In this document: piece after piece, positions 24,511-57,100 of the stretch
Layout: each line of letters starts with the position of its first letter
How positions within the stretch are numbered: the stretch's first letter is position 1
DNA from: Clostridia bacterium
GTDB taxonomy: Bacteria; Bacillota; Clostridia; Christensenellales; CAG-138
Direction: 5' to 3'
DNA length: 64,000 nucleotides
Assembly: GCA_017429985.1 (NCBI GenBank)
Contig: JAFRNW010000018.1
Location: forward strand, 259,120 to 323,119
Program-made: the position numbers and the translations under genes
Notes under the pieces: generated by a model
What the model was told of the DNA's origin: nothing
What the model saw: only the letters and a program-made list of their open reading frames with translations
The model's database searches: none

Positions 24511-24528
24511 CAAGGAGAATCCTTCGTT

Positions 24529-24693: not shown

Positions 24694-24881
24694 TAGTCAT
24701 GAATTTTCATTTGTTTCTTTCGGTATCATACACCCAAATCCGTATGATTTCCACAGAAATATTCATATTTTCCGAATATTACTACAAATTGTTCCGATGT
24801 TCTTTTCACTCCTTTTTCAATCGGCTGTATCAGATTGCCGTTTGCGCGTGCTACAATATCAGCAACGGGAGGGCTACGCAA

Positions 24882-37941: not shown

Positions 37942-37967
37942 CCGGGAATCAATATCCTGATAAAATA

Positions 37968-37995
37968 CATGCGTGCCGGCAATCGCCGGCACGCA
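37968..37995. terminator. Strong hairpin between the convergent sbcC and permease genes
   Basis: ATGCGTGCCGGC-aatc-GCCGGCACGCAT, a 12-bp perfect stem. The U-tract is better for the minus transcript (GUAUUUUAUC) than for the plus transcript. Confidence 0.6.
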
Positions 37996-38055
37996 TATTA
38001 TTCACTGAGAAATGGAGCAATCTTGTCATTTCCTTATAATGGTCTTAAGAGAGCA

Positions 38056-39511: not shown

Positions 39512-40129
39512 TCAGTAGGGTTTCATTTTGCTGTAGCATTCCTGGGAGACAATTTCCTTCAGCATCTCCCCGCGGATTTTTTTCTGCCTTGAAAAATAGA
39601 ATTCCAGTTCCTCGATATCCTTCTTGTCTCTGATTTTGGACGGATCGTCAATCAGTGACAGACAAAGATTCGTGAGATCGTAGCAGCGGTTCATGATCAG
39701 ATTGATTTTCTTTCCGATCAGATTGATCGATGTCAGATACTCCTGCGTTTTATGCCGCATGCTGAACATGGTTTTGATCTGCTCAATGTCCTCGGCATCC
39801 ACGCCACGGTTGAATATCTCGCGGATGCTCTTCGCCTGATCTTCCGGAGGAAGCGCGCGAACGTATCCCCCCTCTCCCGTTTCATATCTGACCCTGTCAA
39901 CCACATTGCTCCCGTTCAGCACACGATCCGTGACCGTGCAGTAGGCTTCCGCAAACGCATCGATGAACGGCTGGATCTTCTTCTTCCTGTACTTGGAAAG
40001 AAGCAGGATCATCGCTATGAGCGCAAGTATGACGACAATTCCCGATAACTGCTGCAAACTGTTTCCGGTCCTTTCCGGAACGAATTCGGATCGGGGACTC
40101 CGCACAGGGCAGAGCCCCCGTCTTTTCAT
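39512..40129 (-). CDS. Hypothetical single-pass membrane protein (AT-rich ORF)
   Basis: 205 aa with one TM segment (LSGIVVILALIAMILLLS) and a charged helical C-terminal part. No family recognised and the start is uncertain. It lies between the Mo subunit and permease genes. Confidence 0.4.
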   Translation of the reverse strand: MKRRGLCPVRSPRSEFVPERTGNSLQQLSGIVVILALIAMILLLSKYRKKKIQPFIDAFAEAYCTVTDRVLNGSNVVDRVRYETGEGGYVRALPPEDQAKSIREIFNRGVDAEDIEQIKTMFSMRHKTQEYLTSINLIGKKINLIMNRCYDLTNLCLSLIDDPSKIRDKKDIEELEFYFSRQKKIRGEMLKEIVSQECYSKMKPY

Positions 40130-40138: not shown

Positions 40139-42448
40139 TTATTTCTTGGCTTTCAGTGCTGCAAGCACAACATCCGGCATGAGCGGCATCCGCGTGAATC
40201 TGACTCCGGTCGCATTGGCAACCGCGTTTGCGATCGCAGGCGCGCCCGGAACCATGACGATTTCACCGATACCACGTGCTCCGTAAGGACCTGTCGGCTC
40301 CGCATTCTCAACGACCTCAACGATCAGTTCCGGCATATCGTCGAATGTCGGGATCTTGTAGTCCACGAAGCTCGGGTTCATGACCTTTCCTTCTTTGAGT
40401 TTCAGTTCTTCCCAGAGCGCGGTTCCCATTGCCTGGACCATGGCGCCTTCCGCCTGTCCCTCATACATCTGGGGGTTGATGACCTTGCCGGCGTCAAAGA
40501 CGGATACCATCTTCAGCACCTTTACCTTGCCGGTGTCAAGATCCACCTCAACCTCAGCGCCGTTGACGCCCATCGTCCAGAATGCAACCGGTTTCGGGGA
40601 AAGACCGGTCTTAATGTCCGCCGCGATGTTGTTCGGAACCGTATAGGAACCGACGCCGATCATCGGGCCTGCAATACCGCTCTGGTCCGGAAGCATCAGA
40701 CCGAGTGCGAAAGTGGAGATCGGGACTTTTATGTCCGGATAGAACACTCTGCGGACATACCCGTCTTCCAGATACAGGTCCTTCTTCCAGGTTCCCATCT
40801 TGATCTGGGCAACTTCAAGGATCTTGTCCCTGAGATCTTCCGCAGCAAGTTTCGTCGCGTTGCCGGCGCAGTACGTGGAACGGGACGCAACCGTCTGCCA
40901 CTCGTACGGGGTATGATCCGTATCGCCTGTCCTGACTGTGATCTTGCTGACGTCGACCGTCAGTGTTTCAGCGGCGATCTGTGCCATGACCGTGTCAGAG
41001 CCCTGGCCCATATCATGGCAGGAGCAGAGAAGAATGAACGTTCCGTCCTCATTCATGCGGATAATGACGGAAGACTGTGCATCTGTCGGCATGGACGGCG
41101 CTTTCCAGCCGCCCGCCAGACCTTTGCCGCGGACCTTTCTCGGATTGCCGGAAGGCTCGCAGGGCTTGTCGTACTCGATAAGAGCAGCTGCCTTTTCAAG
41201 GCATTCCTGATAGCCGGCAACATCAATGACCTGACCTGTTGCGGAGACGCCGCCCGGACGGATTCCGTTGATACGGCGGATATCCAGAGGCGATATGCCC
41301 ATTTCGTTTGCAACCATATCCAGGTTCTGCTCGATTGCGAAGTGGATCTCACTCATGCCGAAACCGCGGTACGGACCGCCGACCGGGTGGTTCGTGTAGA
41401 CGCAGTAGCTGTCTGTCGCGATGTTCTCGATATCATACGGACCGACACAGCCCCATCCTGCTGCTTTAACGATGTTTACGCCGTACTCTGTGTAGGCGCC
41501 GCCGTCCCATGCCAGCACGTTCTTCGAGCCGATGATCTTTCCATCCTTGTTGACCGCTGTCTGGATACGGATATGCAGTCCCTGACGGACGTATGCATAC
41601 TGGAACTCGTCTTCACGGGTGTAGGTCAGTTTGACCGGACGTCCGGGGCAGAGCATAGCCAGCGGAATAACGATACCTTCCAGCGTTGTTCCCGCTTTAC
41701 AGCCGAATCCGCCGCCAACCGCTTTACTGATAACGCGAATCTTGTTGAGCGGGAAATCGAATGTTTCCGCCAGCGCACGGCGGACAGCAAACGGAGACTG
41801 GCAGGCAGCCCAGATGCACAGTTCGCCGTCCGGCATATACTGCGCGGTGCAGGCGTGCGGCTCGATCGGTACGTGCTGCACGTGCGGAATATAGAAGCTG
41901 TTGTCAAATGTCTTGTATGCTTCCTTGAACGCCTTTTCGGCATCTCCCTTGCGCAGGACGTAGTGGTGGGAAATATTGGTGCCTTTCTGCGGATAGAAAA
42001 TCGGAGCTACCTTGTATGTGTGCAGATCGGGGTGGATCAGCGGCGCATCCGGTTTCATGCCGTCCAGGGAATCAAACACCGCGGGAAGCTCTTCATACTC
42101 CACTTCGATCAGTTTGCAGGCTTCTTCCGCGATTTCTTTGGACTCCGCGGCAACAGCCGCGACAGGCTCTCCTTTGAATTTCGCGGTACCGACCGCCAGA
42201 AAGTTTTTGTCTTCCAGATACAGGCCGGCACGTTTCTTATAGTATTCACCGGTAATAACGCAGCGAACGCCATACAGCTGCTCCGCTTTGCTTGTGTCGA
42301 TCTTCAGAATTTTCGCATGCGCATAGGGGCTGCGCTTGACCTGCGCGAACAGCGGACGGGAAAACTGAATATCATCCGCGAATTGTGCAGATCCGGTTAC
42401 TTTTTTAATGGCATCAAGCCGTTCTACGGATGTTCCGACAACTCTCAT
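40139..42448 (-). CDS. XDH/aldehyde-oxidoreductase-family molybdopterin-binding large subunit
   Basis: 769 aa: VERLDAIKKVTGSAQFADD, RSPYAHAKI, VGGGFGCKAG, GQGSDTVMAQIAAE, PYGARGIGE. Confidence 0.9.
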   Translation of the reverse strand: MRVVGTSVERLDAIKKVTGSAQFADDIQFSRPLFAQVKRSPYAHAKILKIDTSKAEQLYGVRCVITGEYYKKRAGLYLEDKNFLAVGTAKFKGEPVAAVAAESKEIAEEACKLIEVEYEELPAVFDSLDGMKPDAPLIHPDLHTYKVAPIFYPQKGTNISHHYVLRKGDAEKAFKEAYKTFDNSFYIPHVQHVPIEPHACTAQYMPDGELCIWAACQSPFAVRRALAETFDFPLNKIRVISKAVGGGFGCKAGTTLEGIVIPLAMLCPGRPVKLTYTREDEFQYAYVRQGLHIRIQTAVNKDGKIIGSKNVLAWDGGAYTEYGVNIVKAAGWGCVGPYDIENIATDSYCVYTNHPVGGPYRGFGMSEIHFAIEQNLDMVANEMGISPLDIRRINGIRPGGVSATGQVIDVAGYQECLEKAAALIEYDKPCEPSGNPRKVRGKGLAGGWKAPSMPTDAQSSVIIRMNEDGTFILLCSCHDMGQGSDTVMAQIAAETLTVDVSKITVRTGDTDHTPYEWQTVASRSTYCAGNATKLAAEDLRDKILEVAQIKMGTWKKDLYLEDGYVRRVFYPDIKVPISTFALGLMLPDQSGIAGPMIGVGSYTVPNNIAADIKTGLSPKPVAFWTMGVNGAEVEVDLDTGKVKVLKMVSVFDAGKVINPQMYEGQAEGAMVQAMGTALWEELKLKEGKVMNPSFVDYKIPTFDDMPELIVEVVENAEPTGPYGARGIGEIVMVPGAPAIANAVANATGVRFTRMPLMPDVVLAALKAKK

Positions 42449-42924
42449 TTGTCATAGACCCCCTTCTCTGCGACCGCTTCAATTGCTTCAACGATCTTTT
42501 TATATCCCGTGCAGCGGCACAGGTTTCCGCTCATGGCTTTCTTGATCTCATCCCTTGTCGGATGCGGATTGTCACGGAGAAGTGATTCAGCGCTCATCAG
42601 CATGCCGGGCGTGCAGAAGCCGCACTGCAGAGCCATGTGCTCAATAAAGGATTCCTGCAGCGGTGAAATCTGGCTGCCTTTTGCAAGGCCTTCGACGGTT
42701 TCAATATGCATTCCGTCCAGCTCAGGCGCGAGGATCAGGCAAGCGTTGACCGCCTTGCCGTCCACGATAACCGTGCAGGCACCGCACTCACCGGCGCCGC
42801 AGCCTTCCTTTGTGCCTGTCAGTGCGAGATCCTCGCGGAGGACGGACAGGAGCGTGCGGTTTGCAGGAACGCGGAGCTCGATCGGTTCATCATTTACGAA
42901 AAACTTGACAAGATATTCTTTCAT
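42445..42924 (-). CDS. [2Fe-2S]-binding small subunit of a molybdenum hydroxylase
   Basis: 159 aa: GCGAGECGACTVIVDG, CGFCTPG, LCRCTGY. 4-nt overlap with the large-subunit gene. Confidence 0.9.
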   Translation of the reverse strand: MKEYLVKFFVNDEPIELRVPANRTLLSVLREDLALTGTKEGCGAGECGACTVIVDGKAVNACLILAPELDGMHIETVEGLAKGSQISPLQESFIEHMALQCGFCTPGMLMSAESLLRDNPHPTRDEIKKAMSGNLCRCTGYKKIVEAIEAVAEKGVYDK

Positions 42925-42936: not shown

Positions 42937-43767
42937 TTACGCCAGCTTGGTAAGCACATCGCGGACGATGTACGAGACCATGTCAAGACGATACTGTTTG
43001 GAAGCACGAACGTCGTCGATCGGATTGACTTCCGTCGGAGCCAGTTCCGCAGCCTCATCAATCAGTTCTTTGGTCAGTTTCTTGCCGGCAAGCAGTTCTT
43101 CCGTCTTTTTCAGGCGGAGCGGGGTCGGAGCAACGGAACCCATGGCAATGTGGTACTCGTCGCCGAATTTCAGTACCGTACCGCACACGGTGGAAAGATC
43201 CACCTGGTCTCTTCTGGCAATCTTACGGAATTCTCCTTCTGCCTCGCGGTAAGGCACCCGGATGCCGGTCACGAGTTCTCCGCGCTCCAGCGCTACCTTG
43301 CGGACGAACAGAATAAACTCTGTGATCGGAATCTCACGCTTGCCGTTCGGCCCGAGGATCTCAAGGACAGCATCATAGCAGTACAGCGGGGTCGCCGTAT
43401 CCGCCAAAGGAGATGCATTGACGATGTTTCCCACGCAGGTCGCGCGGTTGCGCACCTGTCTGGATCCCACGGATTCCGCCGCGGCTGCAAGGGTCGGATA
43501 GTATTTCCGAACGTCCTCGTTTCCCGCGATCTCATTCATGGTAGCCAGACACCCGATGTGCAGTCCTTCCTCTTTCGAGAAAGTGATGCCATCCAATCCC
43601 GGAATCTTCTTTAAATCGATGACATACTCCGGGGTCAACAGATAGTCGCGCATACGCACAACTATGTCCGTGGCACCTGCCATAAAGACAGCCGCTTTGT
43701 CATACTCTTCCTTGAGTCTGACGGCCTCCTCCAATGTCTGGGGAAGCAGATACTGGAAATCCTTCAA
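42937..43767 (-). CDS. FAD-binding medium subunit of a molybdenum hydroxylase (CoxM-like)
   Basis: 276 aa: VFMAGATDIVVRMRD, ATCVGN. The FAD-FeS-Mo gene order is the CoxMSL-type arrangement. Confidence 0.85.
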   Translation of the reverse strand: MKDFQYLLPQTLEEAVRLKEEYDKAAVFMAGATDIVVRMRDYLLTPEYVIDLKKIPGLDGITFSKEEGLHIGCLATMNEIAGNEDVRKYYPTLAAAAESVGSRQVRNRATCVGNIVNASPLADTATPLYCYDAVLEILGPNGKREIPITEFILFVRKVALERGELVTGIRVPYREAEGEFRKIARRDQVDLSTVCGTVLKFGDEYHIAMGSVAPTPLRLKKTEELLAGKKLTKELIDEAAELAPTEVNPIDDVRASKQYRLDMVSYIVRDVLTKLA

Positions 43768-43816: not shown

Positions 43817-44419
43817 TCAGGTACTCCTGATTTTCAATAAACTGTCGTAATCGTCCGGTGTGTCAACATCAAGCCCGCATCCAACGTCATCCGTCAGAAC
43901 GTATTCCGTTTTTCCGGCGCAGGCTTTGAATCCCCCGTGCAGCCCGTTCTGTCCGTCATAAACCGCGAGCAGTTCAAGGCAGGCTCTGGATAGAAGAGGC
44001 GGATGAAGCCGTTTCATTCCCTGACTCGGAAAAACAAGATCGGCTTCCGTTTCCTCCATCTTCCGGATCAGTCCCGGCAGGATCTTGGGCGGAACTGCCG
44101 GCATATCTCCCGGAAGCAGGAACGCTGCGTCGACGGCCGGATCCTTCAGCACGTCTCTGATGGCGATCTGTGCGGAATCAAACATTTCCGTCGTTTCAAA
44201 CCGGTCATTGTGGAGCCACCTGACCGTCCTGTCCGAAAGAGCTTCCCGGATTTCCTCAGCCCTGTACCCGGTCACGACCCGCACGTCCGTGATTCCTGCC
44301 TGAAAAAACACATCCACGGAATGCGCGATCAGCGGCTTCCCGTTCAGGGGAAGCAAAGGCTTGAATCTGCCCATCCTTCTGGACATCCCGGCAACAAGAA
44401 CCACTCCAACCGTCTGCAT
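43817..44419 (-). CDS. mocA: Molybdenum cofactor cytidylyltransferase (MocA/MobA-like nucleotidyltransferase)
   Basis: ORF 43817..44506 trimmed to the ATG at 44419, giving MQTVGVVLVAGMSRRMG (the LAAGxSxRMG-type motif). DVDTPDDY is near the C-terminus. The RBS is weak, so the start is tentative. Confidence 0.7.
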   Translation of the reverse strand: MQTVGVVLVAGMSRRMGRFKPLLPLNGKPLIAHSVDVFFQAGITDVRVVTGYRAEEIREALSDRTVRWLHNDRFETTEMFDSAQIAIRDVLKDPAVDAAFLLPGDMPAVPPKILPGLIRKMEETEADLVFPSQGMKRLHPPLLSRACLELLAVYDGQNGLHGGFKACAGKTEYVLTDDVGCGLDVDTPDDYDSLLKIRST

Positions 44420-44510
44420 AAATACTTTTACCGGATCCCAATCCTTTCCGCCGGGGCGGGCTCTCTCTGTATCTGCGAAAAACACACAGTAATACTGCGT
44501 GCTCAATCAA

Positions 44511-44858
44511 TCAAAATATAGGTATCGAATCAATGGGGCAATTCCAAGAATTACGGATTTTATGATGTTCCACGCCTGCGCCAAACGACGCAGTCCGTAC
44601 CTCAAGATAACACTTCGGCGAAGCTCTGAATGATCCATCGGAATCAACAGATGTGAAGATAAGCAATAACTGACCATCATAATCCCCGGATTTGAACCTG
44701 GTGAAAACAAGAATACGACCGAAACTGTCTCGCTCCAGCTCGGAAATCTCATTAAACTCGAAGTCATTTATCTGCTTCTGGTATAATGCGGCCGTCAGAT
44801 CCATGGTGGCTTTTCTGACAGCTTCTTCCGGTTCTTGTCCGCCAAATAAACGCATCAT
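44511..44858 (-). CDS. Hypothetical protein (AT-rich orphan ORF)
   Basis: 115 aa. GAGGAAG lies upstream of ATGATG. The middle of the sequence looks plausible for a beta-rich fold (GRILVFTRFKSGDYDGQLLLIFTSVDSDGSF). No family recognised. It is visibly more AT-rich than its neighbours. Confidence 0.4.
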   Translation of the reverse strand: MMRLFGGQEPEEAVRKATMDLTAALYQKQINDFEFNEISELERDSFGRILVFTRFKSGDYDGQLLLIFTSVDSDGSFRASPKCYLEVRTASFGAGVEHHKIRNSWNCPIDSIPIF

Positions 44859-44989: not shown

Positions 44990-45799
44990 TTATGCATCCT
45001 CAAATCCGTCAAACGCAACAATTCTCGTTACACAGGCTTCCCCTCCGACCAGCTTCCACGGAAACGCTCCAATCACGCAGCGTTTATTAGAAAGCTTATC
45101 GATATCACCGCCGAGGCATTCCGCATGAATTGCTTCATAAGGCTGTTTGAACAGTTCAATATGCATCGCCTGATAGTGATCCGGCCAGGGATAGAGCTCC
45201 GCCAACGTTTTTCCGTAACGGGCGAAAAGCTTCTCCTCGCATTTTTTCGCTTCCTTCGGTTCCCAGTCACGAATCTTCGTGTTCATCGGATGATCTGCAC
45301 TTCCGCAGTCCACTCCGATCCAGCGCAGCTTCTTGTCACGCACCCATTGCACAAAGTCCATATCCGGTCCCGGATGACGGATCATATACCGTTTCTCATC
45401 CGCTGTCCCGGGCATGTCCCAGCCGTATTTATGATATCCCGTATTGATGATCAGGATGTCTCCCTCTCTCACTTCGACTCTTTTTTCAATATCTTTGGAT
45501 GTATAGATTGCGAAGTCATCTTCACCGAACTCGTCAGAAAGATCGACCACCACGCCGGGATGACAAAGCTTTGTCAGTTCAAGAGAGGCCATGTCGCGTC
45601 CGGCGGTATCAAAATGGATCGGTCCGTCCAGATGCGTTCCCACATGATTGCTGTGGGTCAGAACCTGCCCATTTGCCCCGTTCGGTGCCAGCCTCTTAAA
45701 AAATTTCATTTCAAGCGGCTCCATCGTCGGCCACGGCAGGCATCCAACTCCAAATTTACAGGAAAGATCATAAACTGTAATATCAGACCATTTGCTCAT
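44990..45799 (-). CDS. Cyclase-family metal-dependent hydrolase (kynurenine formamidase / isatin hydrolase superfamily), copy A
   Basis: 269 aa with HVGTHLDGPIHF, which matches the family HxGTHxDxPxH motif. It is a paralog of the next gene. Confidence 0.85.
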   Translation of the reverse strand: MSKWSDITVYDLSCKFGVGCLPWPTMEPLEMKFFKRLAPNGANGQVLTHSNHVGTHLDGPIHFDTAGRDMASLELTKLCHPGVVVDLSDEFGEDDFAIYTSKDIEKRVEVREGDILIINTGYHKYGWDMPGTADEKRYMIRHPGPDMDFVQWVRDKKLRWIGVDCGSADHPMNTKIRDWEPKEAKKCEEKLFARYGKTLAELYPWPDHYQAMHIELFKQPYEAIHAECLGGDIDKLSNKRCVIGAFPWKLVGGEACVTRIVAFDGFEDA

Positions 45800-45924: not shown

Positions 45925-45954
45925 AAAAAAGGGCGGTCGCAGAAGGACCGCCCC
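45925..45954 (-). terminator. Rho-independent terminator between the two cyclase paralogs
   Basis: The minus strand reads GGGCGGUC-cuucugc-GACCGCCC followed by UUUUUUCAAAU, starting about 12 nt after the stop of copy B. Confidence 0.8.
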
Positions 45955-45965: not shown

Positions 45966-46775
45966 TCAGACATCCTCAAAACCGTCGAACGCGACGATAC
46001 GGGAGATGCAGCTCTCGCCCTCGACCAGCTTCCACGGGAAGCAGCCGATAACGACACGCTTGTTGGACAGCTCATCGATCTGGCCGCCAAGGCACTCGGC
46101 ATGAATTGCCTCATAGGGCTGGCAGAACAGTTCGATATGCATTGCCTGATAATGATCCGGCCACGGATACATCTCGTTCAGGGTCTTGCCGTACTTCTCC
46201 TGGAACTTCTTGTCGCACTTTGCGGCTTCCATCGGCTCCCAGTCACGGATCTTCGTGTTCATCGGGTGGTCTGCGCTTCCGCAGTCAACGCCGATCCAGC
46301 GGATCTTCTTTTCACGGACCCATTTCACGAAGTCCAGATTCGGACCGGGGTGACGGAGCATATAACGTTTTTCATCCGCTGTTCCCGGAGCATCCCAGCC
46401 ATATTTATGATAGCCGGTGTTGATGATCAGGATGTCGCCCTCTTTGACTTCCACACGTTTTTCAATGTCCTCGGCGGTGTAAATGCCGAAATCGTCCTCG
46501 CCGAACTCATCGGAAAGGTCAACAACTACGCCGGGATGCACGAGCTTTGTGAGCTCCAGGGACGCCATATCGCGGCCTGCTGTATCAAAATGGAGCGGAC
46601 CGTCAAGGTGAGTACCAACATGGTTGCTGTGTGTCAGCAGCTGGCCGTTTGCACCGTTCGGAGCGAGACGTTTGAAGAACTTCATCTGAAGCGGCTCATA
46701 GGTCGGCCACGGCGGCGTGCAGATGCCAATCGGGATTGAAAGATCATACATCTTGATGTCAGACCATTTACTCAT
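45966..46775 (-). CDS. Cyclase-family metal-dependent hydrolase, copy B
   Basis: 269 aa with HVGTHLDGPLHF. AGGAGGACA lies upstream. By my hand count it is roughly 80-85 percent identical in protein to copy A. Confidence 0.85.
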   Translation of the reverse strand: MSKWSDIKMYDLSIPIGICTPPWPTYEPLQMKFFKRLAPNGANGQLLTHSNHVGTHLDGPLHFDTAGRDMASLELTKLVHPGVVVDLSDEFGEDDFGIYTAEDIEKRVEVKEGDILIINTGYHKYGWDAPGTADEKRYMLRHPGPNLDFVKWVREKKIRWIGVDCGSADHPMNTKIRDWEPMEAAKCDKKFQEKYGKTLNEMYPWPDHYQAMHIELFCQPYEAIHAECLGGQIDELSNKRVVIGCFPWKLVEGESCISRIVAFDGFEDV

Positions 46776-46885: not shown

Positions 46886-48310
46886 TTACGCCCATTCTTC
46901 CGCACAGGCAGCAAGCGCCTTCTTGAAGCACTCTTCCGGCGGATTCACGATGCCCGCGCCGACCTGGCCGACACCGTAGTCCTTGTGGGCAATACCCGTA
47001 TTGATGATCGGACGGATACCCGTCTCGATGACCTTGAGCAGATCGATACCTGTCGCACTGCCGCGGAAGTCGAGTGCCGGGATCTTATAGGACTGGCCTT
47101 CGCCGACCGTGATCTCATACATGGTCTTCGAGTAGTTCAGCGCGTCGCTGACCTGGCCGCCAACGAACTGTACGATCGCCGGTGCGGCCGCCATGCAGAA
47201 GCCGCCGATACCGGCAGTTTCCGTGATGCAGGAGTCGCCGAGATCGGGTGCTGCGTCGCACTCATCGAATCCCGGGAAGTACAGGCCCTTGACCATCTCT
47301 GCAGGACCGGTGAACCACTTGTTGGGACCGAGACCCGCGATCCGGATGCCGAAGTCCGTGCCGTTACGGCACATTGTCGCGAGCACCGTGCAGTACGGGA
47401 TGTCGAAGATCGGATCCATCGTGCACTTGCAGGCGGGCATCGAGATGTTCAGGAACGTGTGGTTGTTCCCGTTGATGAAGTTAAAGGCATCGATCTTATC
47501 CTGCTCCGGAATATCCAGAGCCATGATGGACGGAACGAGTTCGCGGATCAGCAGGGACGTTCCCGCTTCGTTACGGTTGTGCGCTTCGTCGCCCATCTGG
47601 AGCAGTTTGGAGATCAGGACCTTGACGTCGATCTCGCCTTTGAGTTTCATCGCGTCACGCAGGACCGGATACAGTTTTTTCTCCATCCAGCGGAGACGCT
47701 CGAACACTTCTTCATCGCATGCGCCGAAGCGGAGCACCTTGCCGAGGCCTTCATTGAACGTGCAGTATGCACGGTTTCCGAACGCCTTGTTTTCAAGGAT
47801 CCACACGGGCATATGATAGGTGACGACGCCGGCCATCGGACCGACTGCGCTGTGCATATGGCAGGGATCGAATTTGATCTTTCCCGATGCAGCGAGTTTT
47901 TCTGCTTCCGCAATGTCCTTTGCGCGTCCCTCATAGATCAGGCCGCCCATGACAGCGCCCCTCTGCGGTCCGCACATACGGTCCCAGGTGATCGGAGGTC
48001 CGGCATGCAGGATCGTGTCTTCGGTCATTCCGGGGATCACTTCACCGGCAATGCCTACGCCGACAATCGTCGGCTGGGCGGCAAGAATCCGTCTGAGCGC
48101 CTCTTTATTGGCCTCCTGAATCTTCTCGAGGAGTTCAGGTTTTTTCAGTTTACGAAGATTTCCGGCAGCTACTTTGTCGCCGCCTGCAACCGGCTTCCAG
48201 TCCACATGGACCGCGGGAACACGCTGGCTCTCGAGATCTTTGTAGAAGGACTCGATACCGAAGTTGACGACGTGCAGTTCTTTTGCGAACAAATCATTCA
48301 GCTTACTCAT
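46886..48310 (-). CDS. DUF1116 protein (YlbE/AllG-like)
   Basis: 474 aa starting MSKLNDLFAKELHVVNFGIESFYKDLESQ.., directly downstream of an FdrA-type gene as in E. coli fdrA-ylbE. Family assignment is by eye from the N-terminus and context. Confidence 0.75.
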   Translation of the reverse strand: MSKLNDLFAKELHVVNFGIESFYKDLESQRVPAVHVDWKPVAGGDKVAAGNLRKLKKPELLEKIQEANKEALRRILAAQPTIVGVGIAGEVIPGMTEDTILHAGPPITWDRMCGPQRGAVMGGLIYEGRAKDIAEAEKLAASGKIKFDPCHMHSAVGPMAGVVTYHMPVWILENKAFGNRAYCTFNEGLGKVLRFGACDEEVFERLRWMEKKLYPVLRDAMKLKGEIDVKVLISKLLQMGDEAHNRNEAGTSLLIRELVPSIMALDIPEQDKIDAFNFINGNNHTFLNISMPACKCTMDPIFDIPYCTVLATMCRNGTDFGIRIAGLGPNKWFTGPAEMVKGLYFPGFDECDAAPDLGDSCITETAGIGGFCMAAAPAIVQFVGGQVSDALNYSKTMYEITVGEGQSYKIPALDFRGSATGIDLLKVIETGIRPIINTGIAHKDYGVGQVGAGIVNPPEECFKKALAACAEEWA

Positions 48311-48323
48311 TGTACGTTCCTCC

Positions 48324-49901
48324 TTACTTCAGGTTTGCAAGGACACGCTCAACGAAACGCGTGGCCTGTGCATTGGACGGAAGTACGACAGCACCGGCAT
48401 CCTCAAGCTTCTTCTGTGTCCTGGACAGGCACTGCGGGTCACCCTCTGTGCCACAGACTTCCACGACGCAGCAGAGATAACGTCCCTCTTTTTCCGCTTC
48501 AGCTTTCGCAGTCCGGATCGCGTCGGAAAGATCAGCCGCGGGATCCTCATGGGAGCCGTATCCGATAACGCAGTCACAAAGAATAACAGCGCATTCCGGA
48601 TCCTTTCCATCCGTAATAACACGCTCTGCGCGGAGGCTGGGATCGATCATCGGGTGCGGACGGCCGACGGTGAATTCATCATCGCCAAAGTCAAGGAAGG
48701 TATGCTCCTTGCTTGGGCCGGTACGCGCATTCTCCAGCTTATCCTCGGCATGCAGCGGGATATTGGAATAGATATGACCGAGTTTGTCGATCATCAGTTT
48801 CATGGCCTCGTCGCAAAGCGTTCCGCCGGTATAGAAGCCGCGGACATATTTCTGCGATTTTGCCATCTTGCCGGCGATCTCCTTCGCCATGGCCTCGGCT
48901 TTGTCATTGCCCATCGTAAAGTCGACGTAATCCTTCAAAGGTTCGCCGCGAAGCAGTGCAACTGCCTTGTGCGCAGCATCTTCAAGGGATTTCGCCGCGA
49001 TAAGCCCCTTCGCCTCGATCTCTTTCGGATCGCCGCCGATGAATTCAACCACGACCGGTTTCCCTGCATCTTTTGCGATGTCAAGGATCATGCTGGCAAT
49101 CTCAGCGGCCGGGGGTTTCGAAACAAGCGTGATGACCTTTGTGTTCGGATCGTTGATCAGGGCATCCAGTCCGAGCTTCATCATCAGGCCGCCGATGTCC
49201 TTCTTCAGATCACGGCCGCCGGTTCCGATAACCTGGGAAACGCCTTCGCCCAGCTGTGCAATGATCGAGCTGACTTCCTGCGTTCCTGTACCGGAAGCGC
49301 AGACCATTCCGATTCCGCCTTTCGGCACAACGTTTGCGAACGCCAGCGGAATGTTGTTAATAATCGCCGTGCCGCAGTCAGGTCCCATGACAAGAAGTTC
49401 ATGCGCATAGGCATATTCCTTCAATGCCTTTTCCTCTTCGATCGTTACGTTATCGGAGAACAACATAACGTTAATGTCGCGGTCGAGGCAGCTCTGTGCA
49501 ACATCAGCTGCGAATTTTCCGGGAACTGAAATAACCGCCATATTCAGATCGGGATCGACCTTGATGGCGCCTTCCAGTGTCGGCGGATAATAGGTGGATT
49601 CCTTCTGCTCGGATTTTTTGTTGAGCAGCTCTTCAACCTTCTTCTGTGCTGCTTCAAAAACCTCTTCCGAATCACACTCAACGGCTACAAAGAAGTCATT
49701 GGATGTAACATTTGCATCAAACTCCGGGGTGGCAAGTCCGATATTATGGGCAATCTCAACATTAAGATCGGTTCCCATACCGACCAGTGCTTCTTTCACA
49801 CCGTCAAGTTTCTTAAGGTCTTTGGAGATCAGCATGAGGGTTACGGAATCATAGTAAGCATTTTTTCTGATTTCCAGTTTAACCACTATTTTTCCCTCCA
49901 T
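48324..49901 (-). CDS. fdrA: FdrA-type protein (succinyl-CoA-synthetase-alpha-like; AllF-like)
   Basis: 525 aa. N-terminus: IRKNAYYDSVTLMLISKDL (compare E. coli FdrA FQDSVSLMIISRKL). CoA-ligase-like core: LLVMGPDCGTAIINNIPLAFAN, VCASGTGTQEV, IGTGGRD. Confidence 0.85.
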   Translation of the reverse strand: MEGKIVVKLEIRKNAYYDSVTLMLISKDLKKLDGVKEALVGMGTDLNVEIAHNIGLATPEFDANVTSNDFFVAVECDSEEVFEAAQKKVEELLNKKSEQKESTYYPPTLEGAIKVDPDLNMAVISVPGKFAADVAQSCLDRDINVMLFSDNVTIEEEKALKEYAYAHELLVMGPDCGTAIINNIPLAFANVVPKGGIGMVCASGTGTQEVSSIIAQLGEGVSQVIGTGGRDLKKDIGGLMMKLGLDALINDPNTKVITLVSKPPAAEIASMILDIAKDAGKPVVVEFIGGDPKEIEAKGLIAAKSLEDAAHKAVALLRGEPLKDYVDFTMGNDKAEAMAKEIAGKMAKSQKYVRGFYTGGTLCDEAMKLMIDKLGHIYSNIPLHAEDKLENARTGPSKEHTFLDFGDDEFTVGRPHPMIDPSLRAERVITDGKDPECAVILCDCVIGYGSHEDPAADLSDAIRTAKAEAEKEGRYLCCVVEVCGTEGDPQCLSRTQKKLEDAGAVVLPSNAQATRFVERVLANLK

Positions 49902-50788
49902 ATTGAAGTATGTATGATAGCTAATACAATACCGGTAAGAGTGTCCGTGCCGGATGTGGACCCAAATGAAGCAACCCGAAACGCTGCTTTGCTGATAAGG
50001 TCCGCATCCGAGCCGTAGAAAAGTAGCTTGAGCAGGTGTAGGACGTCTTCGGATATCTGTCCTTTGCTTACCTGCAATAGAAATGTACCGCTGATGCGGT
50101 TCGTTTTCCCGGCGGCAGCAACTGCCGCGCGGGAAATGGTCTGGCTGAGCAGATAATCCTCTTCAGCCTGCGCTTTCACCTGCATGACCGAAAAGAATCC
50201 ATTCAGCAGATCGTCTGATGACGGAGTCAGTCCGATTCCGCATCCGGCGATTCTCTCTGCGGCACGCTCAGCCGCCTCGGGATCTTTTGCCTCGATTGAG
50301 CGGTATAGTTCGGGCAATCTCGGGTTGATCAGGTCGGCGTACACATTCCCTGGAAGGTCTACCGCCAGATTCGATAACCCGTTTTCATCTCCGATTTCAC
50401 GCAGAACCTTCAGTAAAGGTTCCGGATCAGGTCTCACAACTTCTGCAAAACATCCCGAAGGAAACGCACCGGCAACCGACATATCGACCTGCTGTACCCC
50501 TGAAAGAGATACATACAGATCCTCGCCGATCCAGATCCCTTCGCCGTCCGCTTTCACCGGATCTCCCGTATGGATCCCCTCTGAAAGAAAGGATATCATT
50601 TCGGCTGTCCGGCAGGAGAACGGCTGCAAGCCTCTTCCCTTACATAGTATCGAAATCATCCCGATATCCGTGTCCAGATTGACTGCACGTTCGAATACGG
50701 AATGAACTTCGCCTTTCGGGCTCGTGATAAGCAGTGTGCGAAACAAGGTTCCGCACACTGCATCGATCCTTACTATACGCGGAACCAT
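49886..50788 (-). CDS. DUF2877 protein (YlbF/AllH-like)
   Basis: 300 aa. The IAGCGIGLTPSSDDLLNGFF motif matches the GxGxGLTPSGDD signature I associate with DUF2877. 16-nt overlap with the fdrA-like start. Confidence 0.7.
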   Translation of the reverse strand: MVPRIVRIDAVCGTLFRTLLITSPKGEVHSVFERAVNLDTDIGMISILCKGRGLQPFSCRTAEMISFLSEGIHTGDPVKADGEGIWIGEDLYVSLSGVQQVDMSVAGAFPSGCFAEVVRPDPEPLLKVLREIGDENGLSNLAVDLPGNVYADLINPRLPELYRSIEAKDPEAAERAAERIAGCGIGLTPSSDDLLNGFFSVMQVKAQAEEDYLLSQTISRAAVAAAGKTNRISGTFLLQVSKGQISEDVLHLLKLLFYGSDADLISKAAFRVASFGSTSGTDTLTGIVLAIIHTSIWREK

Positions 50789-50803: not shown

Positions 50804-51175
50804 TTACGCCTTCTGGAAAATGAAGCCGTACTGGGGCTCGGTAACGGTCTCTTTGTATTTGATGACCTTGTCCCTGACCTGACCGACAGTCGCTACAAGC
50901 TCCATGCCGGTCTCGATGCCGTCATCAAAACCGATCTGGCCGGTCGCGCGGACGCCGTTCGGGAATTCTACGATTCCGAAGTTGAGCCACGGAACCATGT
51001 ATCCCTCAGGAAGGTTATAAACACGGGTCCAGGTCAGCAGTTTGCATTTGCCCTCGAGCGGTACTTCCTCGAACTCACGGCCGTCGCAATCGGGATTCTG
51101 GCACACGATGTAACGGGGATGATGAAGCTTACCGCATTTCTTGCACTTATAAGCATACATTTTCATTTCTTCCAT
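50804..51175 (-). CDS. DUF35 zinc-ribbon/OB-fold protein (thiolase-partner type)
   Basis: ORF 50804..51181 trimmed to the ATG at 51175, 7 nt after AGGAGGG. It has a zinc ribbon (CKKCGKLHHPRYIVCQNPDC) followed by an OB-like region. It lies directly downstream of the thiolase-fold gene. Confidence 0.8.
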   Translation of the reverse strand: MEEMKMYAYKCKKCGKLHHPRYIVCQNPDCDGREFEEVPLEGKCKLLTWTRVYNLPEGYMVPWLNFGIVEFPNGVRATGQIGFDDGIETGMELVATVGQVRDKVIKYKETVTEPQYGFIFQKA

Positions 51176-51188
51176 GATCATTCCCTCC

Positions 51189-52385
51189 TTATTTCGTGGT
51201 CAGAATGGTTGCAACGACGTTGTTGCCGAAACCACCGAAGTTGATTGCCAGCGCTGTCTTGGCTCCTTCGACCTGACGCTCACCAGCTTCGCCGCGAAGC
51301 TGTTTGACCAACTCAACGATCTGGGAAACACCGGTCGCACCAAGCGGATGACCTTTTGCTTTCAGACCGCCGGATGTATTGATCGGCATCTCGCCCTTGA
51401 TCTCGGTCTTTCCTTCACGGGCTGCCAGATGGCCGGTGCCGCGCGGGAAGAGACCTGTTTCTTCGGACTCTGCGATCTCGAGAATCTGGAACGCGTCATG
51501 AAGCTCTGCAACATCGATATCCTTCGGGGTAAATCCGGACATCTTGTACGCCATCTGAGCGGAAAGACGGACGGCCAGCAGGTCTGTCGGGACTTCACGG
51601 TTGGCAACGACATGAGTATCTGTTGCGGAACCGACACCGGCGATGCGGATGAACTTCTTGCCGCCGAAGCCCAGCTCTTCCTGTTTGTCCTTTGCAACAA
51701 GCAGAACAGCGGCAGCGCCGTCGGAAACCGGGCACATATCAAACTGGCGAAGCGGATCCGCTACCAACGGGTTGGTCGCGTTGATGATTCTTTCGTCCGT
51801 GATACGGTCGAGTTTAACGACATTGCGGATATGCGCTACGGGGTTCAAGCAGGCATTCGCATGATTCTTGACAGAAACGATGGAAAGATCCTTGCTAGTT
51901 ACACCGTATTTGTCCATGCAGAGACGTGTGAAAAGTCCCGCAAAGGAGGGAAGTGTGCAGCCGTATTTGTACTCTGCTTCCGGATGGAGCATCGTAGCAA
52001 CAAAGTCGGTTCCTTCCCAGCCGGTTACGGCACGCATTCCTTCTGCACCGACTACGAGAACGCAGTCGCATACGCCGGAAGCAATTGCCATGAATCCGAG
52101 TTTGACAGCGGATGCACCGGAGGCAGGACCATTCTCAATGGTCTCAGCCATGGCAGGACGGAGATTCAGCGTGTCGACCACAGCGGAAGCGAGTCCGCTG
52201 ATACGCTGAACCATTCCGGCAGCCATCGTTCCGATGAATACCTGATCAATAACATTTTTACGGCCGGTCTTAGCACCTGCATCATCCATGGCCTCAAGCG
52301 CAGCCTGGCAGGTCATGTCGATGAACGGAACATTGGACTTGCCGAATTTGGTGTGGCCAATGCCAACGATACCTACTTCGCGCAT
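51189..52385 (-). CDS. Thiolase-fold protein (SCP-x/archaeal type) that apparently lacks the catalytic cysteines
   Basis: 398 aa: MREVGIVGIGHTKFGK, FDMCPVSDGAAAVLL, NTSGGLKAKGHPLGATG. The position where the nucleophilic Cys is expected reads ENGPASGASA, and the C-terminal CxGG position reads NFGGFG. Confidence 0.8.
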   Translation of the reverse strand: MREVGIVGIGHTKFGKSNVPFIDMTCQAALEAMDDAGAKTGRKNVIDQVFIGTMAAGMVQRISGLASAVVDTLNLRPAMAETIENGPASGASAVKLGFMAIASGVCDCVLVVGAEGMRAVTGWEGTDFVATMLHPEAEYKYGCTLPSFAGLFTRLCMDKYGVTSKDLSIVSVKNHANACLNPVAHIRNVVKLDRITDERIINATNPLVADPLRQFDMCPVSDGAAAVLLVAKDKQEELGFGGKKFIRIAGVGSATDTHVVANREVPTDLLAVRLSAQMAYKMSGFTPKDIDVAELHDAFQILEIAESEETGLFPRGTGHLAAREGKTEIKGEMPINTSGGLKAKGHPLGATGVSQIVELVKQLRGEAGERQVEGAKTALAINFGGFGNNVVATILTTK

Positions 52386-52406: not shown

Positions 52407-53087
52407 TTAGACGTTCAGCTTAGCGGGCATATGGAGAACTTCGTTTGCTTCGATGACCTCGGGGAACAGCTCAGCTGCCGGACGGATACCGACGTTCTTG
52501 TTCGCTTTATGCTTCTCCCAAAGCGCACGGGTAAGAACAAATGTCGGAACGCCGCCGAGCTCATGCGGGCACTGGAAACGATCTTCGAGTTCATACTCGA
52601 TCATCCAGCGTTTGAATCCGTTCGGAGACTCTGCAACGATCCAGACCTCATCCTGATTCATGAAGTCAAAGTGATATTCCATCTTCGCAGCAAACAGCTG
52701 AGCACCAACACGAGCACCACGTTTCAGTGTCATCGTATGGTAGGACATACCGACTTTTTCATTCACAAGACGACCGTTTACGATACCGGCGATCTCGCCG
52801 TTGACAGCACCTACGAAGAAGTACTCGTCCTGTACACGATGCCGCAGCATGCCAAGGCCTTCCGCAATAATACGGGCAGAAACGATGTCATAGAAATCCT
52901 TGGGATGATCGAGCAGCGGGCGGATGCCTTCGACGATCATTTCGATCTCTTCCGGTTTTGCTTCACGAACCAGCATGTCCTCGCCGGTTGTCAGCGGGAT
53001 AACCTTCGGCTCATACGGTTTCAGGCCGATTGTTGGCGGACGAAGCTTTGCTTCCATTTCGTCGACGATAATGTCATACTTACCCAT
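52407..53087 (-). CDS. Hypothetical protein, possibly a GNAT-fold acyltransferase
   Basis: 226 aa with GGAGG upstream. FFVGAVNGEIAGIVNG followed by KRGARVGAQLFAAKMEYHF resembles the GNAT beta4-alpha3 acyl-CoA loop. The call is weak and by eye. Confidence 0.4.
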   Translation of the reverse strand: MGKYDIIVDEMEAKLRPPTIGLKPYEPKVIPLTTGEDMLVREAKPEEIEMIVEGIRPLLDHPKDFYDIVSARIIAEGLGMLRHRVQDEYFFVGAVNGEIAGIVNGRLVNEKVGMSYHTMTLKRGARVGAQLFAAKMEYHFDFMNQDEVWIVAESPNGFKRWMIEYELEDRFQCPHELGGVPTFVLTRALWEKHKANKNVGIRPAAELFPEVIEANEVLHMPAKLNV

Positions 53088-53305: not shown

Positions 53306-53353
53306 GTTCCATAATGCGGAACTATATGTTTCATATGTTCCGTATTATGGAAC
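53306..53353. promoter_or_regulatory. 48-bp near-perfect palindrome made of two 17-bp GTTCC-N7-GGAAC boxes (candidate operator)
   Basis: GTTCCATAATGCGGAAC (53306-53322), then tatatgtttcatat, then GTTCCGTATTATGGAAC (53337-53353). The second box is the reverse complement of the first with one mismatch. Confidence 0.5.
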
Positions 53354-53619
53354 ACATGAAAGGAGTGTCCATTTTTGCAGGATGTCATCTTGATTCCTGC
53401 ATAATTAATCTCAAACAGCATCCGTTTCTCTTTCAAAAAGCATCTCAAACCGTCACTTCTCCGCGCACCAGCCGCCCAGCAGTTCCCAATATTTGGGCAA
53501 AAACACATATCTGTCCTATTTCGTACAGTTTCATTTTCGGAACCGCTTCCGTTATCCTGCAAAAATTATTCGCTCCGCCGTGTTGATCGCTAAGCGCATA
53601 TCCGAAACGTTTTTCACGC

Positions 53620-56941: not shown

Positions 56942-57100
56942 GCTGTGTTTCACCTCCTCATAAGATTTTTGATTTCATACAAAAACGCTTCCCGTCACAG
57001 ACAGAAAGCGTCAAACACACCATGATGTTTTTTGCCTCGGCAGGATTTACATATCCTAGGATACTACCGGCTGTCTGCGGCGATATTCATTTTTTCAGCC
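56942..57100 (-). promoter_or_regulatory. Probable L10 (rplJ) leader autoregulatory RNA
   Basis: A leader of about 160 nt lies between the promoter and the rplJ start. It is structured and GC-rich (GCCGCAGACAGCCGG..CCUGCCGAGGC). Firmicute rplJL operons normally carry the L10 leader at this position. I have not verified it against a model. Confidence 0.5.

Follow-up and report, generated by a model that had tools for sequence, protein, structure and literature searches.

A conserved gene cluster around an AllFGH-type trio in a Clostridia bacterium points to predicted anaerobic breakdown of a pyrimidine-like ring

Background

The closest described relative of the gene trio considered here is AllFGH of Escherichia coli, the sole biochemically characterised member of its kind, which acts on oxalurate. 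The purified enzyme interconverts oxalurate plus phosphate and carbamoyl phosphate plus oxamate with Mg2+ only, needing neither CoA nor nucleotide, and in the AllFGH-type chemistry known so far an N-acylurea is split by phosphate into carbamoyl phosphate and an amide (PMC11326118).

In the arginine deiminase, agmatine and anaerobic allantoin/oxalurate fermentations, a ureido compound is likewise phosphorolysed to carbamoyl phosphate, from which ATP is obtained via carbamate kinase. The aerobic oxidative pathway of pyrimidines employs uracil dehydrogenase, barbiturase and ureidomalonase, and DUF35/zf-ChsH2 OB-fold proteins are the usual scaffold partners of SCP-x-type thiolase-fold enzymes. Here we compare these systems with a locus in a 64,000-nucleotide stretch of DNA from a Clostridia bacterium (contig JAFRNW010000018.1), the whole of which is called the window below; all features of the locus lie on the minus strand.

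Results

The trio consists of AllH, the DUF2877 subunit (49886..50788, 300 aa; PF11392, E 6e-22), AllF, the FdrA subunit resembling succinyl-CoA synthetase alpha (48324..49901, 525 aa; PF00549, 9e-38, and PF02629, 2e-10), and AllG, the DUF1116 subunit (46886..48310, 474 aa; PF06545, E 4e-94), and the three lengths are identical in independent gene calls on metagenome contigs with identical proteins. AllF scores 499.9 bits on the NCBIfam FdrA model NF004760 (cut-off 433) and is also assigned PF27530 in the precomputed annotation; it matches PDB 3DMY at 6e-87, and AllG matches PDB 3CLQ at 3e-141. The same three families are adjacent in E. coli K-12, with identities of 39% for AllF, 44% for AllG and only 23% for AllH (YlbF), whose AF2 model (pLDDT 92) matched no fold in the PDB at E<=0.001. 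AllF and AllG align with their E. coli counterparts over most of their length except for a shifted tail: residues 11-55 of AllG match residues 429-473 of 3DMY, and the C-terminal tail that E. coli carries on FdrA corresponds to the N-terminal ~59 residues of AllG in the window. Many residues are invariant in both systems, among them H416 of AllF (in GRPH416PM), the only invariant His of this subunit in the conservation analysis; AllF also carries a CoA-binding domain and a GPDC176GT motif. Judged by these matches, the trio truly belongs to the AllF-AllG-AllH type.

The first-pass annotation had described the trio as tightly packed, permuted in order and outside any allantoin context. The ORF coordinates bear out the packing, with a 16-nt overlap of AllH and AllF (49886-49901) and a 13-nt gap between AllF and AllG (48311-48323); the E. 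coli order that it gave, fdrA-ylbE-ylbF and then a carbamate kinase gene, was verified in NC_000913, where ybcF comes last, and the E. coli trio is an oxamate carbamoyltransferase with AllK as its carbamate kinase (PMC11326118). The order H-F-G does differ from the F-G-H of E. coli, but it is no peculiarity of this locus, as it is the commonest among 80 related loci. As for allantoin, tblastn of the 64-kb window with E. coli AllA, AllB, AllC, AllD, AllE, AllK (carbamate kinase), Gcl and GlxK gave nothing at E<=1e-3, and Pfam scans of its other large ORFs found no allantoin-pathway or carbamate kinase genes, just as had been noted; what had been missed is that the trio nonetheless stands in a nucleobase-catabolism context of molybdenum hydroxylase, cyclases and NCS2 permease.

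In fact a 15-kb cluster is built around the trio, in the order GNAT-fold protein, Cys-less thiolase-like protein, DUF35 protein, AllH, AllF, AllG, two cyclase-family amidohydrolases, MocA, a three-subunit hydroxylase and, at the end, an NCS2 permease; no ATP-grasp domain was found in any of the 15 cluster proteins, trio included. A promoter-like site overlapping two 17-nt palindromes (GTTCC-N7-GGAAC; 53306..53371) is a candidate operator that shows no conservation in the related loci. The unit from the GNAT gene to the cyclase is bracketed by terminators: a terminator-like hairpin at 45930..45954, with a 9-pair stem (7 GC pairs) and then a T run, closes this first transcription unit, and another with a 14-pair stem at 37967..37998, 3' of the permease, marks the cluster end. 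Convergent SbcCD genes lie beyond it. The cluster also encodes a 115-aa protein (44511..44858), present on identical contigs, and a membrane-anchored protein, hyp205 (39512..40129), with one N-terminal hydrophobic segment and homologues at the equivalent position in Clostridia loci; neither has a Pfam match.

The first gene of the operon encodes a GNAT-fold protein, hyp226 (52407..53087), which has neither a Pfam nor a PDB sequence match, while Foldseek places its AF2 model (pLDDT 89) among the GNAT acyl-CoA N-acyltransferases with probability 1.0, and 2347 homologues were found. We propose it as the converter of malonamate to malonyl-CoA, a role in which, amide to thioester, we know of no precedent for a GNAT protein. 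The next gene encodes a thiolase-like protein (51189..52385; Thiolase_N/Thiolase_C_1 domains) with best PDB matches 7YVY, 4YZO, 6ESQ and 7PXP, in which, as aligned with the archaeal thiolase 7YVY, Pro replaces the catalytic Cys (ENGP87ASG). The ENGPASG motif is invariant in 33/33 orthologues, which also retain HDAF, NTSGG and GHP, meaning that the acyl-accepting Cys is gone and the enolate-stabilising motifs are present; a malonyl-CoA decarboxylase or a non-thiolytic partner is the proposed role. It is followed by a DUF35/zf-ChsH2 OB-fold protein (50804..51181; PF12172, 1e-05, and a weak BbsA-like NCBIfam match), the gene of which invariably adjoins the thiolase-like gene in the related loci. 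The SCP-x/archaeal-type thiolase fold with a DUF35 partner recalls the archaeal thiolase/HMG-CoA synthase/DUF35 complex, BbsAB, Ltp2-ChsH2 and PhlABC; unlike these, all orthologues of the window protein have Pro for the nucleophilic Cys, a GNAT-fold protein makes up the third partner, and in sister loci a Na+-pumping decarboxylase takes the place of the pair.

Behind the trio lie two cyclase-family metal-dependent amidohydrolases, A (45966..46775; PF04199, 5e-35), with a conserved HxGTHxDxPxH metal motif, and B (44990..45799), a tandem duplicate 83% identical to A; the cyclase is single-copy in relatives. Members of this family open cyclic amides and six-membered 1,3-dicarbonyl rings (PMC10470551, PMC6117287), and cyclase A is proposed to hydrolyse barbiturate to ureidomalonate, though the enzyme could alternatively cleave a C-C bond by analogy with dihydrophloroglucinol cyclohydrolase (DPGC). 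Next come a MocA-like molybdenum cofactor cytidylyltransferase (43817..44506; PF12804, 1e-32, and TIGR03310 at 109 bits, under cut-off) and a hydroxylase of the xanthine dehydrogenase family with FAD (42937..43767; PF00941 and PF03450, XdhB models below cut-off), 2x[2Fe-2S] (42445..42924; PF00111 and PF01799) and molybdopterin (40139..42448) subunits. On the XdhA model (cut-off 780) the molybdopterin subunit scores 543 bits, as against 1171 bits for the window ORF 3888-6227, and by these scores it is not an XdhA orthologue; it retains the equivalents of Arg880 and Glu1261 and has Ala for that of Glu802, and we propose it as a uracil/thymine dehydrogenase. A bona fide XdhA set is found elsewhere in the window (2532-6227). 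The NCS2 nucleobase permease (38056..39378) is nearest to the uracil permease (272 bits) and RutG (251 bits) models, ahead of the xanthine permease model (180 bits), all three scores being under the equivalog cut-offs, as is every Mo-subunit and deaminase assignment in this study.

The gene content, conservation and module replacements of the related loci were observed directly, in 80 loci, 52 of which are well flanked and come from many anaerobic phyla; the same cassette occurs in Anaerocolumna aminovalerica, Flavonifractor hominis and one 3.7-Mb genome contig. AllF-AllG followed by the cyclase is found in 49/52 well-flanked loci, the Mo hydroxylase in 37/52, the NCS2 permease in 30/52, a PucR regulator in 17/52 and a linked carbamate kinase in 12/52, and homologues of AllC, AllD and AllE in 0/52. 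Cytosine-deaminase-like genes, which would suit a pyrimidine substrate, occur in 9 loci; 8-oxoguanine-deaminase-like genes and PucR regulators are present in some, and these would agree just as well with a purine-like or pterin-like substrate. An AtzD-family ring-opening amidohydrolase, found in 2/52 loci (L058 and L072), never co-occurs with the cyclase; these two enzymes resemble cyanuric acid hydrolases more than barbiturases, and such loci support the general logic of ring opening and ureide cleavage, not barbiturate in particular.

The downstream modules are interchangeable. Among the 52 loci, GNAT (26 loci) and amidase/CN-hydrolase/CoA-transferase III (16) never co-occur (Fisher p = 1e-6), nor do thiolase-like/DUF35 (22) and Na+-decarboxylase (5; p = 0.065), the loci in both comparisons not being phylogenetically independent. 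The GNAT gene always has a thiolase-like gene or a Na+-decarboxylase adjacent, the latter in 3 loci, and in about half of the related loci the trio has no thiolase-like gene with it. In sister loci the cluster-linked amidase is nearest to malonamidase E2 (1e-56, runner-up 1e-45), and the decarboxylase is a Na+-pumping complex of the methylmalonyl-CoA-decarboxylase type, built from an MmdA-type carboxyltransferase (884 bits), a biotin carrier and the components OAD_gamma and OAD_beta. Altogether these replacements point to malonamate and malonyl-CoA, the malonate-specific evidence coming from the sister loci and not from the window.

Discussion

We propose that the trio performs the central step of an operon for nucleobase-ring catabolism and not for allantoin degradation, a reading for which belief and doubt are about evenly balanced, and every substrate of which we infer from the genes. 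Uracil or thymine would be taken up via the NCS2 permease and hydroxylated at C6 by the molybdenum hydroxylase to (5-methyl)barbiturate, and the ring of barbiturate would be opened by the cyclase-family metallo-amidohydrolase to ureidomalonate. AllHFG would then convert ureidomalonate and phosphate to carbamoyl phosphate and malonamate; the former would give ATP, NH3 and CO2 by a carbamate kinase encoded elsewhere in the genome, and the latter would be turned by the GNAT-fold protein into malonyl-CoA, which the Cys-less thiolase-like/DUF35 pair would decarboxylate to acetyl-CoA. We found no paper on such a pathway.

The proposed passage from uracil through barbiturate to ureidomalonate, with molybdenum-type hydroxylation first, is like that of the aerobic pathway in Rhodococcus and Nocardioides (PMC3758960). 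However, the ring opener would be of the cyclase family instead of an AtzD-fold barbiturase, and phosphate would split ureidomalonate into carbamoyl phosphate and malonamate, where the aerobic route hydrolyses it to urea and malonate; moreover the cluster hosts are strict anaerobes, and the proposed design conserves energy. It differs from the carbamoyl-phosphate fermentations in that the transferase is AllFGH-type, not an OTC/ATC-fold transcarbamylase, and the ureide would derive from a pyrimidine ring. As for E. coli, its link to AllK is echoed by the carbamate kinase of the 12 window-clade relatives, whereas the window has neither that gene nor allantoin genes, couples its trio to a hydrolase of the cyclase family, a Mo hydroxylase and a GNAT/thiolase-like/DUF35 module not found in E. 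coli, and has ureidomalonate as predicted substrate in place of oxalurate.

The trio might instead be an oxamate carbamoyltransferase acting on oxalurate as in E. coli, with oxalurate supplied by a non-allantoin route, for example by a cyclase opening parabanate or some other oxidised purine or imidazolidine product that the Mo hydroxylase helps to make; we regard this reading as unlikely. The one characterised enzyme has this activity, PucR-type regulators are present, and the CoA-transferase III of sister loci, with 380-386 bits on the CoA:oxalate CoA-transferase model and about as many on other family-III models, would suit a route from oxamate through oxalate to oxalyl-CoA; yet homologues of AllB, AllC, AllD and AllE are absent from the window and from 80/80 loci, subunit identity to E. 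coli is only 23-44%, the linked amidase is nearest to malonamidase E2, and oxalyl-CoA has no alpha-carbon, so that neither an MmdA-type biotin decarboxylase nor thiolase-fold enolate chemistry could act on it. Slightly less likely again is purine fermentation, where the cyclase would open xanthine to 4-ureido-5-imidazolecarboxylate, a step of the classical clostridial pathway, and the trio would split off its ureido group to give carbamoyl phosphate and 4-amino-5-imidazolecarboxylate. The xanthine-dehydrogenase-family enzyme and NCS2 permease of the cluster, the bona fide XdhA set of the window and PucR regulators in relatives would agree with it, as would the fact that, to our knowledge, most genes of the classical pathway have yet to be assigned. 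But its product is an amine and not an amide, which offers no explanation for the amidase, CoA-transferase, GNAT, decarboxylase and thiolase-like modules, and the permease is nearer to uracil permease and RutG than to xanthine permease, with the Mo subunit short of the XdhA cut-off.

The first-pass annotation is partly supported in its interpretation. Its suggestion that the trio may process another N-carbamoyl or N-acyl amide, with ureidomalonate among the substrates to be assayed, is favoured by the cyclase after the trio, the carbamate kinase in 12/52 loci and the malonyl-type modules. Its other suggestion was an ADP-forming enzyme of acyl-CoA or acyl-phosphate type that works with the CoA-type enzymes nearby; in the form of a synthetase harvesting the thioester made by the neighbouring thiolase, this now appears improbable: the homology of AllF to succinyl-CoA synthetase alpha, with CoA-binding domain, GPDC176GT and His416, and the thiolase-fold and GNAT-fold genes immediately upstream would fit, but no ATP-grasp domain was found in the cluster, the orthologues of the thiolase-like protein uniformly lack the nucleophilic Cys, about half of the loci do without that gene yet 12/52 have carbamate kinase, and E. 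coli AllFGH is independent of CoA and nucleotide (PMC11326118). More improbable still for the window is an s-triazine/biuret route, in which the ring of cyanuric acid or of another such triazine is opened and the trio phosphorolyses biuret or carboxybiuret to carbamoyl phosphate, as it leaves the Mo hydroxylase and malonyl-type modules of the window-type cluster without a role; it plausibly applies to L058 and L072, where a cyanuric-acid-hydrolase-like enzyme replaces the cyclase beside AllHFG, with carbamate kinase also in L072, and nitrifiers have allFGHK co-located with biuret/triuret genes (PMC12625717).

Conclusions

To sum up, the conserved operon that joins the trio with a hydrolase, a molybdenum hydroxylase and a transporter points to a predicted anaerobic breakdown of a pyrimidine-like ring, a route that would probably yield ATP.

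Family membership of the trio and comparison with E. coli

The AllHFG trio is encoded on the minus strand by three tightly packed genes, and the positions and packing reported in the first-pass annotation hold: AllH (DUF2877; 49886-50788, 300 aa; PF11392, E 6e-22) overlaps by 16 nt with AllF (FdrA; 48324-49901, 525 aa; PF27530, with PF02629 (CoA_binding) and PF00549 (Ligase_CoA)), which is followed after a gap of 13 nt by AllG (DUF1116; 46886-48310, 474 aa; PF06545, E 4e-94). The same protein lengths are given by gene calls on independent metagenome contigs encoding identical proteins. AllF reaches 499.9 bits with the NCBIfam FdrA model (cut-off 433), and with most of the length aligned the identities to the E. 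coli K-12 subunits are 39 % for AllF, 44 % for AllG and 23 % for AllH. Moreover C176 and H416 of AllF, the latter being its single invariant histidine, and many polar residues of AllG show at least 97 % conservation across 73-78 sequences, among them those of E. coli. Domains, alignments and conserved residues agree in placing the trio, as far as protein families go, within the AllFGH family.

The point where AllF and AllG are split varies in this family. The tail of about 50 residues that ends E. coli FdrA forms the start of the window AllG, whose residues 1 to ~59 match it, and three architectures are found family-wide: ~474 aa, where AllG bears the tail (the window type), ~420 aa as in E. 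coli, and AllF-AllG fusions of ~1000 aa, which many relatives have. As for AllH, the predicted model (pLDDT 92) consists of an N-terminal beta domain and a C-terminal helical domain carrying the invariant motifs GCGxGLTPSSDD and GSTSGxD; at E<=0.001 it has no structural neighbour in the PDB, and no mechanistic clue was gained from it.

AllFGH was characterised only in 2024. The E. coli enzyme, the only characterised member, interconverts oxalurate and phosphate with carbamoyl phosphate and oxamate, and its assay requires Mg2+ and neither CoA nor nucleotide (PMC11326118). The E. coli gene order given in the first-pass annotation, the trio genes and then a carbamate kinase gene, is confirmed by the RefSeq record (fdrA-ylbE-ylbF-ybcF), while the "permuted" order of the present trio is no peculiarity, H-F-G being the commonest arrangement among related loci. 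The E. coli proteins AllA, AllB, AllC, AllD, AllE, Gcl, GlxK and carbamate kinase have no tblastn match in the 64-kb window, and its other large ORFs were identified as unrelated genes only when scanned with Pfam, in agreement with the earlier reading that allantoin genes and a carbamate kinase are absent from it. Since the trio, unlike the E. coli allantoin enzyme, has neither allantoin genes nor an adjacent carbamate kinase in the window, its context fails to be that of a functional orthologue. A neighbour-joining tree of AllG places the window sequence and 78 retrieved sequences apart from E. coli, although with a single E. coli-type sequence included it is not a rigorous test of orthology.

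Genes around the trio

Read along the minus strand in the direction of transcription, the cluster encodes a 226-aa protein (hyp226), a thiolase-fold protein, a DUF35/zf-ChsH2 protein, AllH, AllF, AllG, two cyclase-family (PF04199) amidohydrolases, a 115-aa protein (hyp115), a MocA-like cytidylyltransferase, the FAD, 2Fe-2S and molybdopterin subunits of a hydroxylase of the xanthine-dehydrogenase family, a membrane-anchored protein (hyp205) and an NCS2 permease. It is flanked by SbcCD and, at the opposite end, by ribosomal-protein genes, both unrelated to it. Terminator-like hairpins are located 3' of the upstream glutamine synthetase gene, the first cyclase gene and the permease gene, and these positions suggest two transcription units. 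The hairpin between the two cyclase copies (45930-45954) is a strong one; the copies themselves (45966-46775 and 44990-45799, minus strand) are tandem duplicates, 83 % identical, and the related loci examined have a single copy. No match to the AtzD family was found in the window, where the candidate for ring opening is the cyclase-family enzyme and not a pair of AtzD/Toblerone-fold barbiturase and ureidomalonase.

The hydroxylase of the cluster is an XDH-family enzyme other than XdhA, its molybdopterin subunit scoring 543 bits with a model for XdhA whose cut-off is 780. This subunit keeps the equivalents of Arg880 and Glu1261, the equivalent of Glu802 being Ala. Two further gene sets for molybdenum hydroxylases lie outside the cluster at 43-6227 (minus strand). 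The first is a genuine xanthine dehydrogenase (XdhA/XdhB/XdhC), whose Mo subunit (3888-6227; 1171 bits with the same model) is the true XdhA, and the second is partial, at the window edge (43-1470). Comparison of the active sites of the two window Mo subunits did not discriminate their substrates. The permease scores 272 bits with the model for uracil permease, 251 with RutG and 180 with xanthine permease, all below the equivalog cut-offs. Hyp205 (39512-40129, minus strand, 205 aa) has no family match, and in Clostridia loci its position between the cyclase or hydroxylase genes and the permease is conserved. Searches of Pfam and of PDB sequences returned nothing for hyp226, hyp205 and hyp115.

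Upstream of the operon, two 17-nt palindromes GTTCC-N7-GGAAC (53306-53322 and 53337-53353, 31 nt apart) overlap a promoter-like site, and these are the only two in the window, for which 0.17 are expected. The double palindrome is absent from related loci and gives no information on the effector; it may be a lineage-specific operator. An Rfam scan of the whole window found in the cluster no riboswitch that would name the ligand; the lysine riboswitch at 24527-24704 (minus strand, 86.8 bits) and the ribosomal protein L10 leader at 56971-57098 (minus strand, 51.1 bits) are unrelated to it.

The thiolase-like protein (51189-52385, minus strand) aligns end to end with the archaeal acetoacetyl-CoA thiolase 7YVY, with Pro87 at the position of the catalytic Cys. 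The motif ENGPASG is invariant in 33/33 cluster-linked orthologues from several phyla, and the motifs HDAF, NTSGG and GHP, which serve thioester-enolate stabilisation, are kept. With Pro87 in place of the nucleophilic Cys, the protein is predicted to be unable to form an acyl-enzyme and hence is no conventional thiolase; a decarboxylase or lyase with the thiolase fold is a possibility. For hyp226 (52407-53087, minus strand), the model (pLDDT 89) matches GNAT acyl-CoA N-acyltransferases with a Foldseek probability of 1.0, and a GNAT fold is thus predicted. Its family has about 2300 members, is without a Pfam model or PDB sequence match, and always heads the GNAT/thiolase-like/DUF35 module.

Gene content of related loci

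Close AllG homologues with 69-98 % identity are abundant in Clostridia, and the same cassette is present in Anaerocolumna aminovalerica, in Flavonifractor hominis and on a 3.7-Mb genome contig. With each GTDB species represented by one genome, at least 593 AllG relatives were found, of which the best 80 loci (53-88 % identical) were analysed by a tblastn panel and unbiased clustering of ORF families, with counts taken in the 52 loci flanked by 6 kb or more at either end. A cyclase follows AllF-AllG in 49 of these 52 loci; a Mo hydroxylase is present in 37, an NCS2 permease in 30, a PucR regulator in 17, a carbamate kinase beside the trio in 12 and a cytosine-deaminase-like amidohydrolase in 9. 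Homologues of AllC, AllD and AllE are found in none of the 80 loci, and accordingly in 0/52. A variant cluster occurs in Lachnospiraceae (L023-L027; for example Lacrimispora indolis, L024 5788-20539), with the order PucR, AllH, AllF, AllG, cyclase, 8-oxoguanine-deaminase-like and cytosine-deaminase-like amidohydrolases, DUF6198, short-chain fatty acid transporter, carbamate kinase, NCS2 permease and PyrF; neither a Mo hydroxylase nor a GNAT or thiolase-like module is encoded in it.

Downstream of the trio, modules replace one another across the loci. The GNAT protein is present in 26 loci, and an amidase-signature amidase, CN-hydrolase and/or family-III CoA-transferase in 16, with no locus shared (Fisher p = 1e-6, phylogeny-uncorrected). 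The Cys-less thiolase-like/DUF35 pair is found in 22 loci, each with the GNAT protein, while five Halanaerobiales-type loci (L073, L080, L082, L083 and L088) have instead of this pair a four-subunit Na+-translocating biotin decarboxylase, composed of an MmdA-type carboxyltransferase (884 bits), OAD_gamma, a biotin carrier and OAD_beta, whose genes sit between AllH and AllF; three of the five also have the GNAT protein. The best solved relative of the cluster-linked amidase is malonamidase E2 (1e-56, the next being 1e-45). Taken together, these replacements indicate that the non-carbamoyl product of the trio would be the amide of a malonate-type acid, which is made into (methyl)malonyl-CoA and then decarboxylated.

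Predicted pathway and its alternatives

Anaerobic pyrimidine catabolism is known chiefly from the reductive route to beta-alanine, and to our knowledge the oxidative route via barbiturate is known from aerobes only, where hydrolytic enzymes waste the ureide bond. The reductive route, via N-carbamoyl-beta-alanine, was rejected for this cluster, which is without reductase, aminotransferase and dehydrogenase. From gene content and its conservation, the exclusivity of modules, the folds and the missing Cys, we infer substrates and GNAT and thiolase-like roles for another route, a prediction built wholly on genomic inference. Uracil or thymine would be hydroxylated to (5-methyl)barbiturate by the Mo enzyme, and the ring would be opened to ureidomalonate by the cyclase-family hydrolase. 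Precedents within this family are isatin hydrolase and, for the opening of a six-membered 1,3-dicarbonyl ring, dihydrophloroglucinol cyclohydrolase (DPGC) (PMC10470551, PMC6117287). AllHFG would then phosphorolyse ureidomalonate to carbamoyl phosphate and malonamate; the GNAT protein, in place of amidase plus CoA-transferase, would turn malonamate into malonyl-CoA, and the thiolase-like/DUF35 pair, in place of the Na+ pump, would yield acetyl-CoA. Carbamoyl phosphate would give ATP via a carbamate kinase, necessarily encoded outside the window in this genome. DPGC-like C-C cleavage of barbiturate to acetylurea is judged unlikely, because sister loci have malonamidase-like and (methyl)malonyl-CoA-decarboxylase-type modules.

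Since oxalurate, on which E. coli AllFGH acts, and ureidomalonate are both N-acylureas, the ureidomalonate pathway seems the best supported one. That the trio makes carbamoyl phosphate from a ureide generated by the cyclase is quite probable; that this ureide is ureidomalonate has about an even chance, and the detailed roles of the GNAT and thiolase-like proteins are put forward tentatively. The intermediates would be those of the aerobic oxidative pyrimidine pathway, whereas the ureide hydrolysed there would be phosphorolysed here, and the fold of the ring-opening enzyme differs. A full-text search of the literature found no description of an anaerobic barbiturate, ureidomalonate or malonamate pathway.

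Among the alternatives, an oxalurate-specific enzyme, its substrate supplied by a route other than allantoin, is improbable though the strongest of them, and it leaves the enolate-type decarboxylase modules and the malonamidase-like amidase unexplained. Slightly less probable still is the classical clostridial xanthine route via 4-ureido-5-imidazolecarboxylate, by which every amide and CoA module stays unexplained. The idea of the first-pass annotation that the trio works as an ADP-forming acyl-CoA synthetase has in its favour the alpha-type character of AllF, with its CoA-binding and ligase-CoA domains, the invariant H416 and PDB matches to SCS-alpha at 1e-13 and weaker; it fails, and is very improbable, because no ATP-grasp family was found in any of the 15 cluster proteins, the trio included, because the thiolase-like neighbour has no nucleophilic Cys, and because in roughly half of the related loci no thiolase-like gene accompanies the trio.

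Two of the 52 loci, in Flavonifractor porci (L058) and Clostridiales VE202-15 (L072), have instead of the cyclase an AtzD-family ring-opening amidohydrolase closest to the Moorella cyanuric acid hydrolase (L058 3692-4798; L072 2476-3573). In both loci AllHFG, an NCS2 permease and a membrane transporter accompany this gene, and in L072 a carbamate kinase does so too. A role of the trio as biuret or carboxybiuret phosphorylase is suggested there, and allFGHK is reported beside biuret and triuret genes in nitrifiers (PMC12625717); for the present window, a triazine/biuret role, plausible in these two loci, is the least probable reading of all.

Implications

The whole proposal, which we regard as possible rather than likely, is a complete and undescribed fermentative oxidation of uracil or thymine via barbiturate with energy conserved twice, in which a ureidomalonate phosphorylase feeds carbamate kinase, and a GNAT exchange of amide to CoA thioester is pulled by a Cys-less thiolase-fold decarboxylase in a DUF35-scaffolded complex, AllFGH being a broad class of acylurea phosphorylases. 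If true, the reactions of the GNAT and thiolase-fold proteins would be new types for their folds, and functions would be gained for several unannotated families, namely hyp226, the thiolase-like/DUF35 pair and the window-type cyclase subfamily. Since the cluster is present in cultured strains, the predictions are directly testable. AllFGH would have a second substrate and a general acylurea phosphorylase role, its substrates by clade being oxalurate, ureidomalonate and biuret or carboxybiuret. Moreover the predicted pathway would be widely distributed among anaerobes, and would mean that ATP and acetyl-CoA are obtained from pyrimidine rings in many strict anaerobes, such as Oscillospiraceae, Flavonifractor, Lachnospiraceae, Spirochaetota, Thermotogota and Halanaerobiales.
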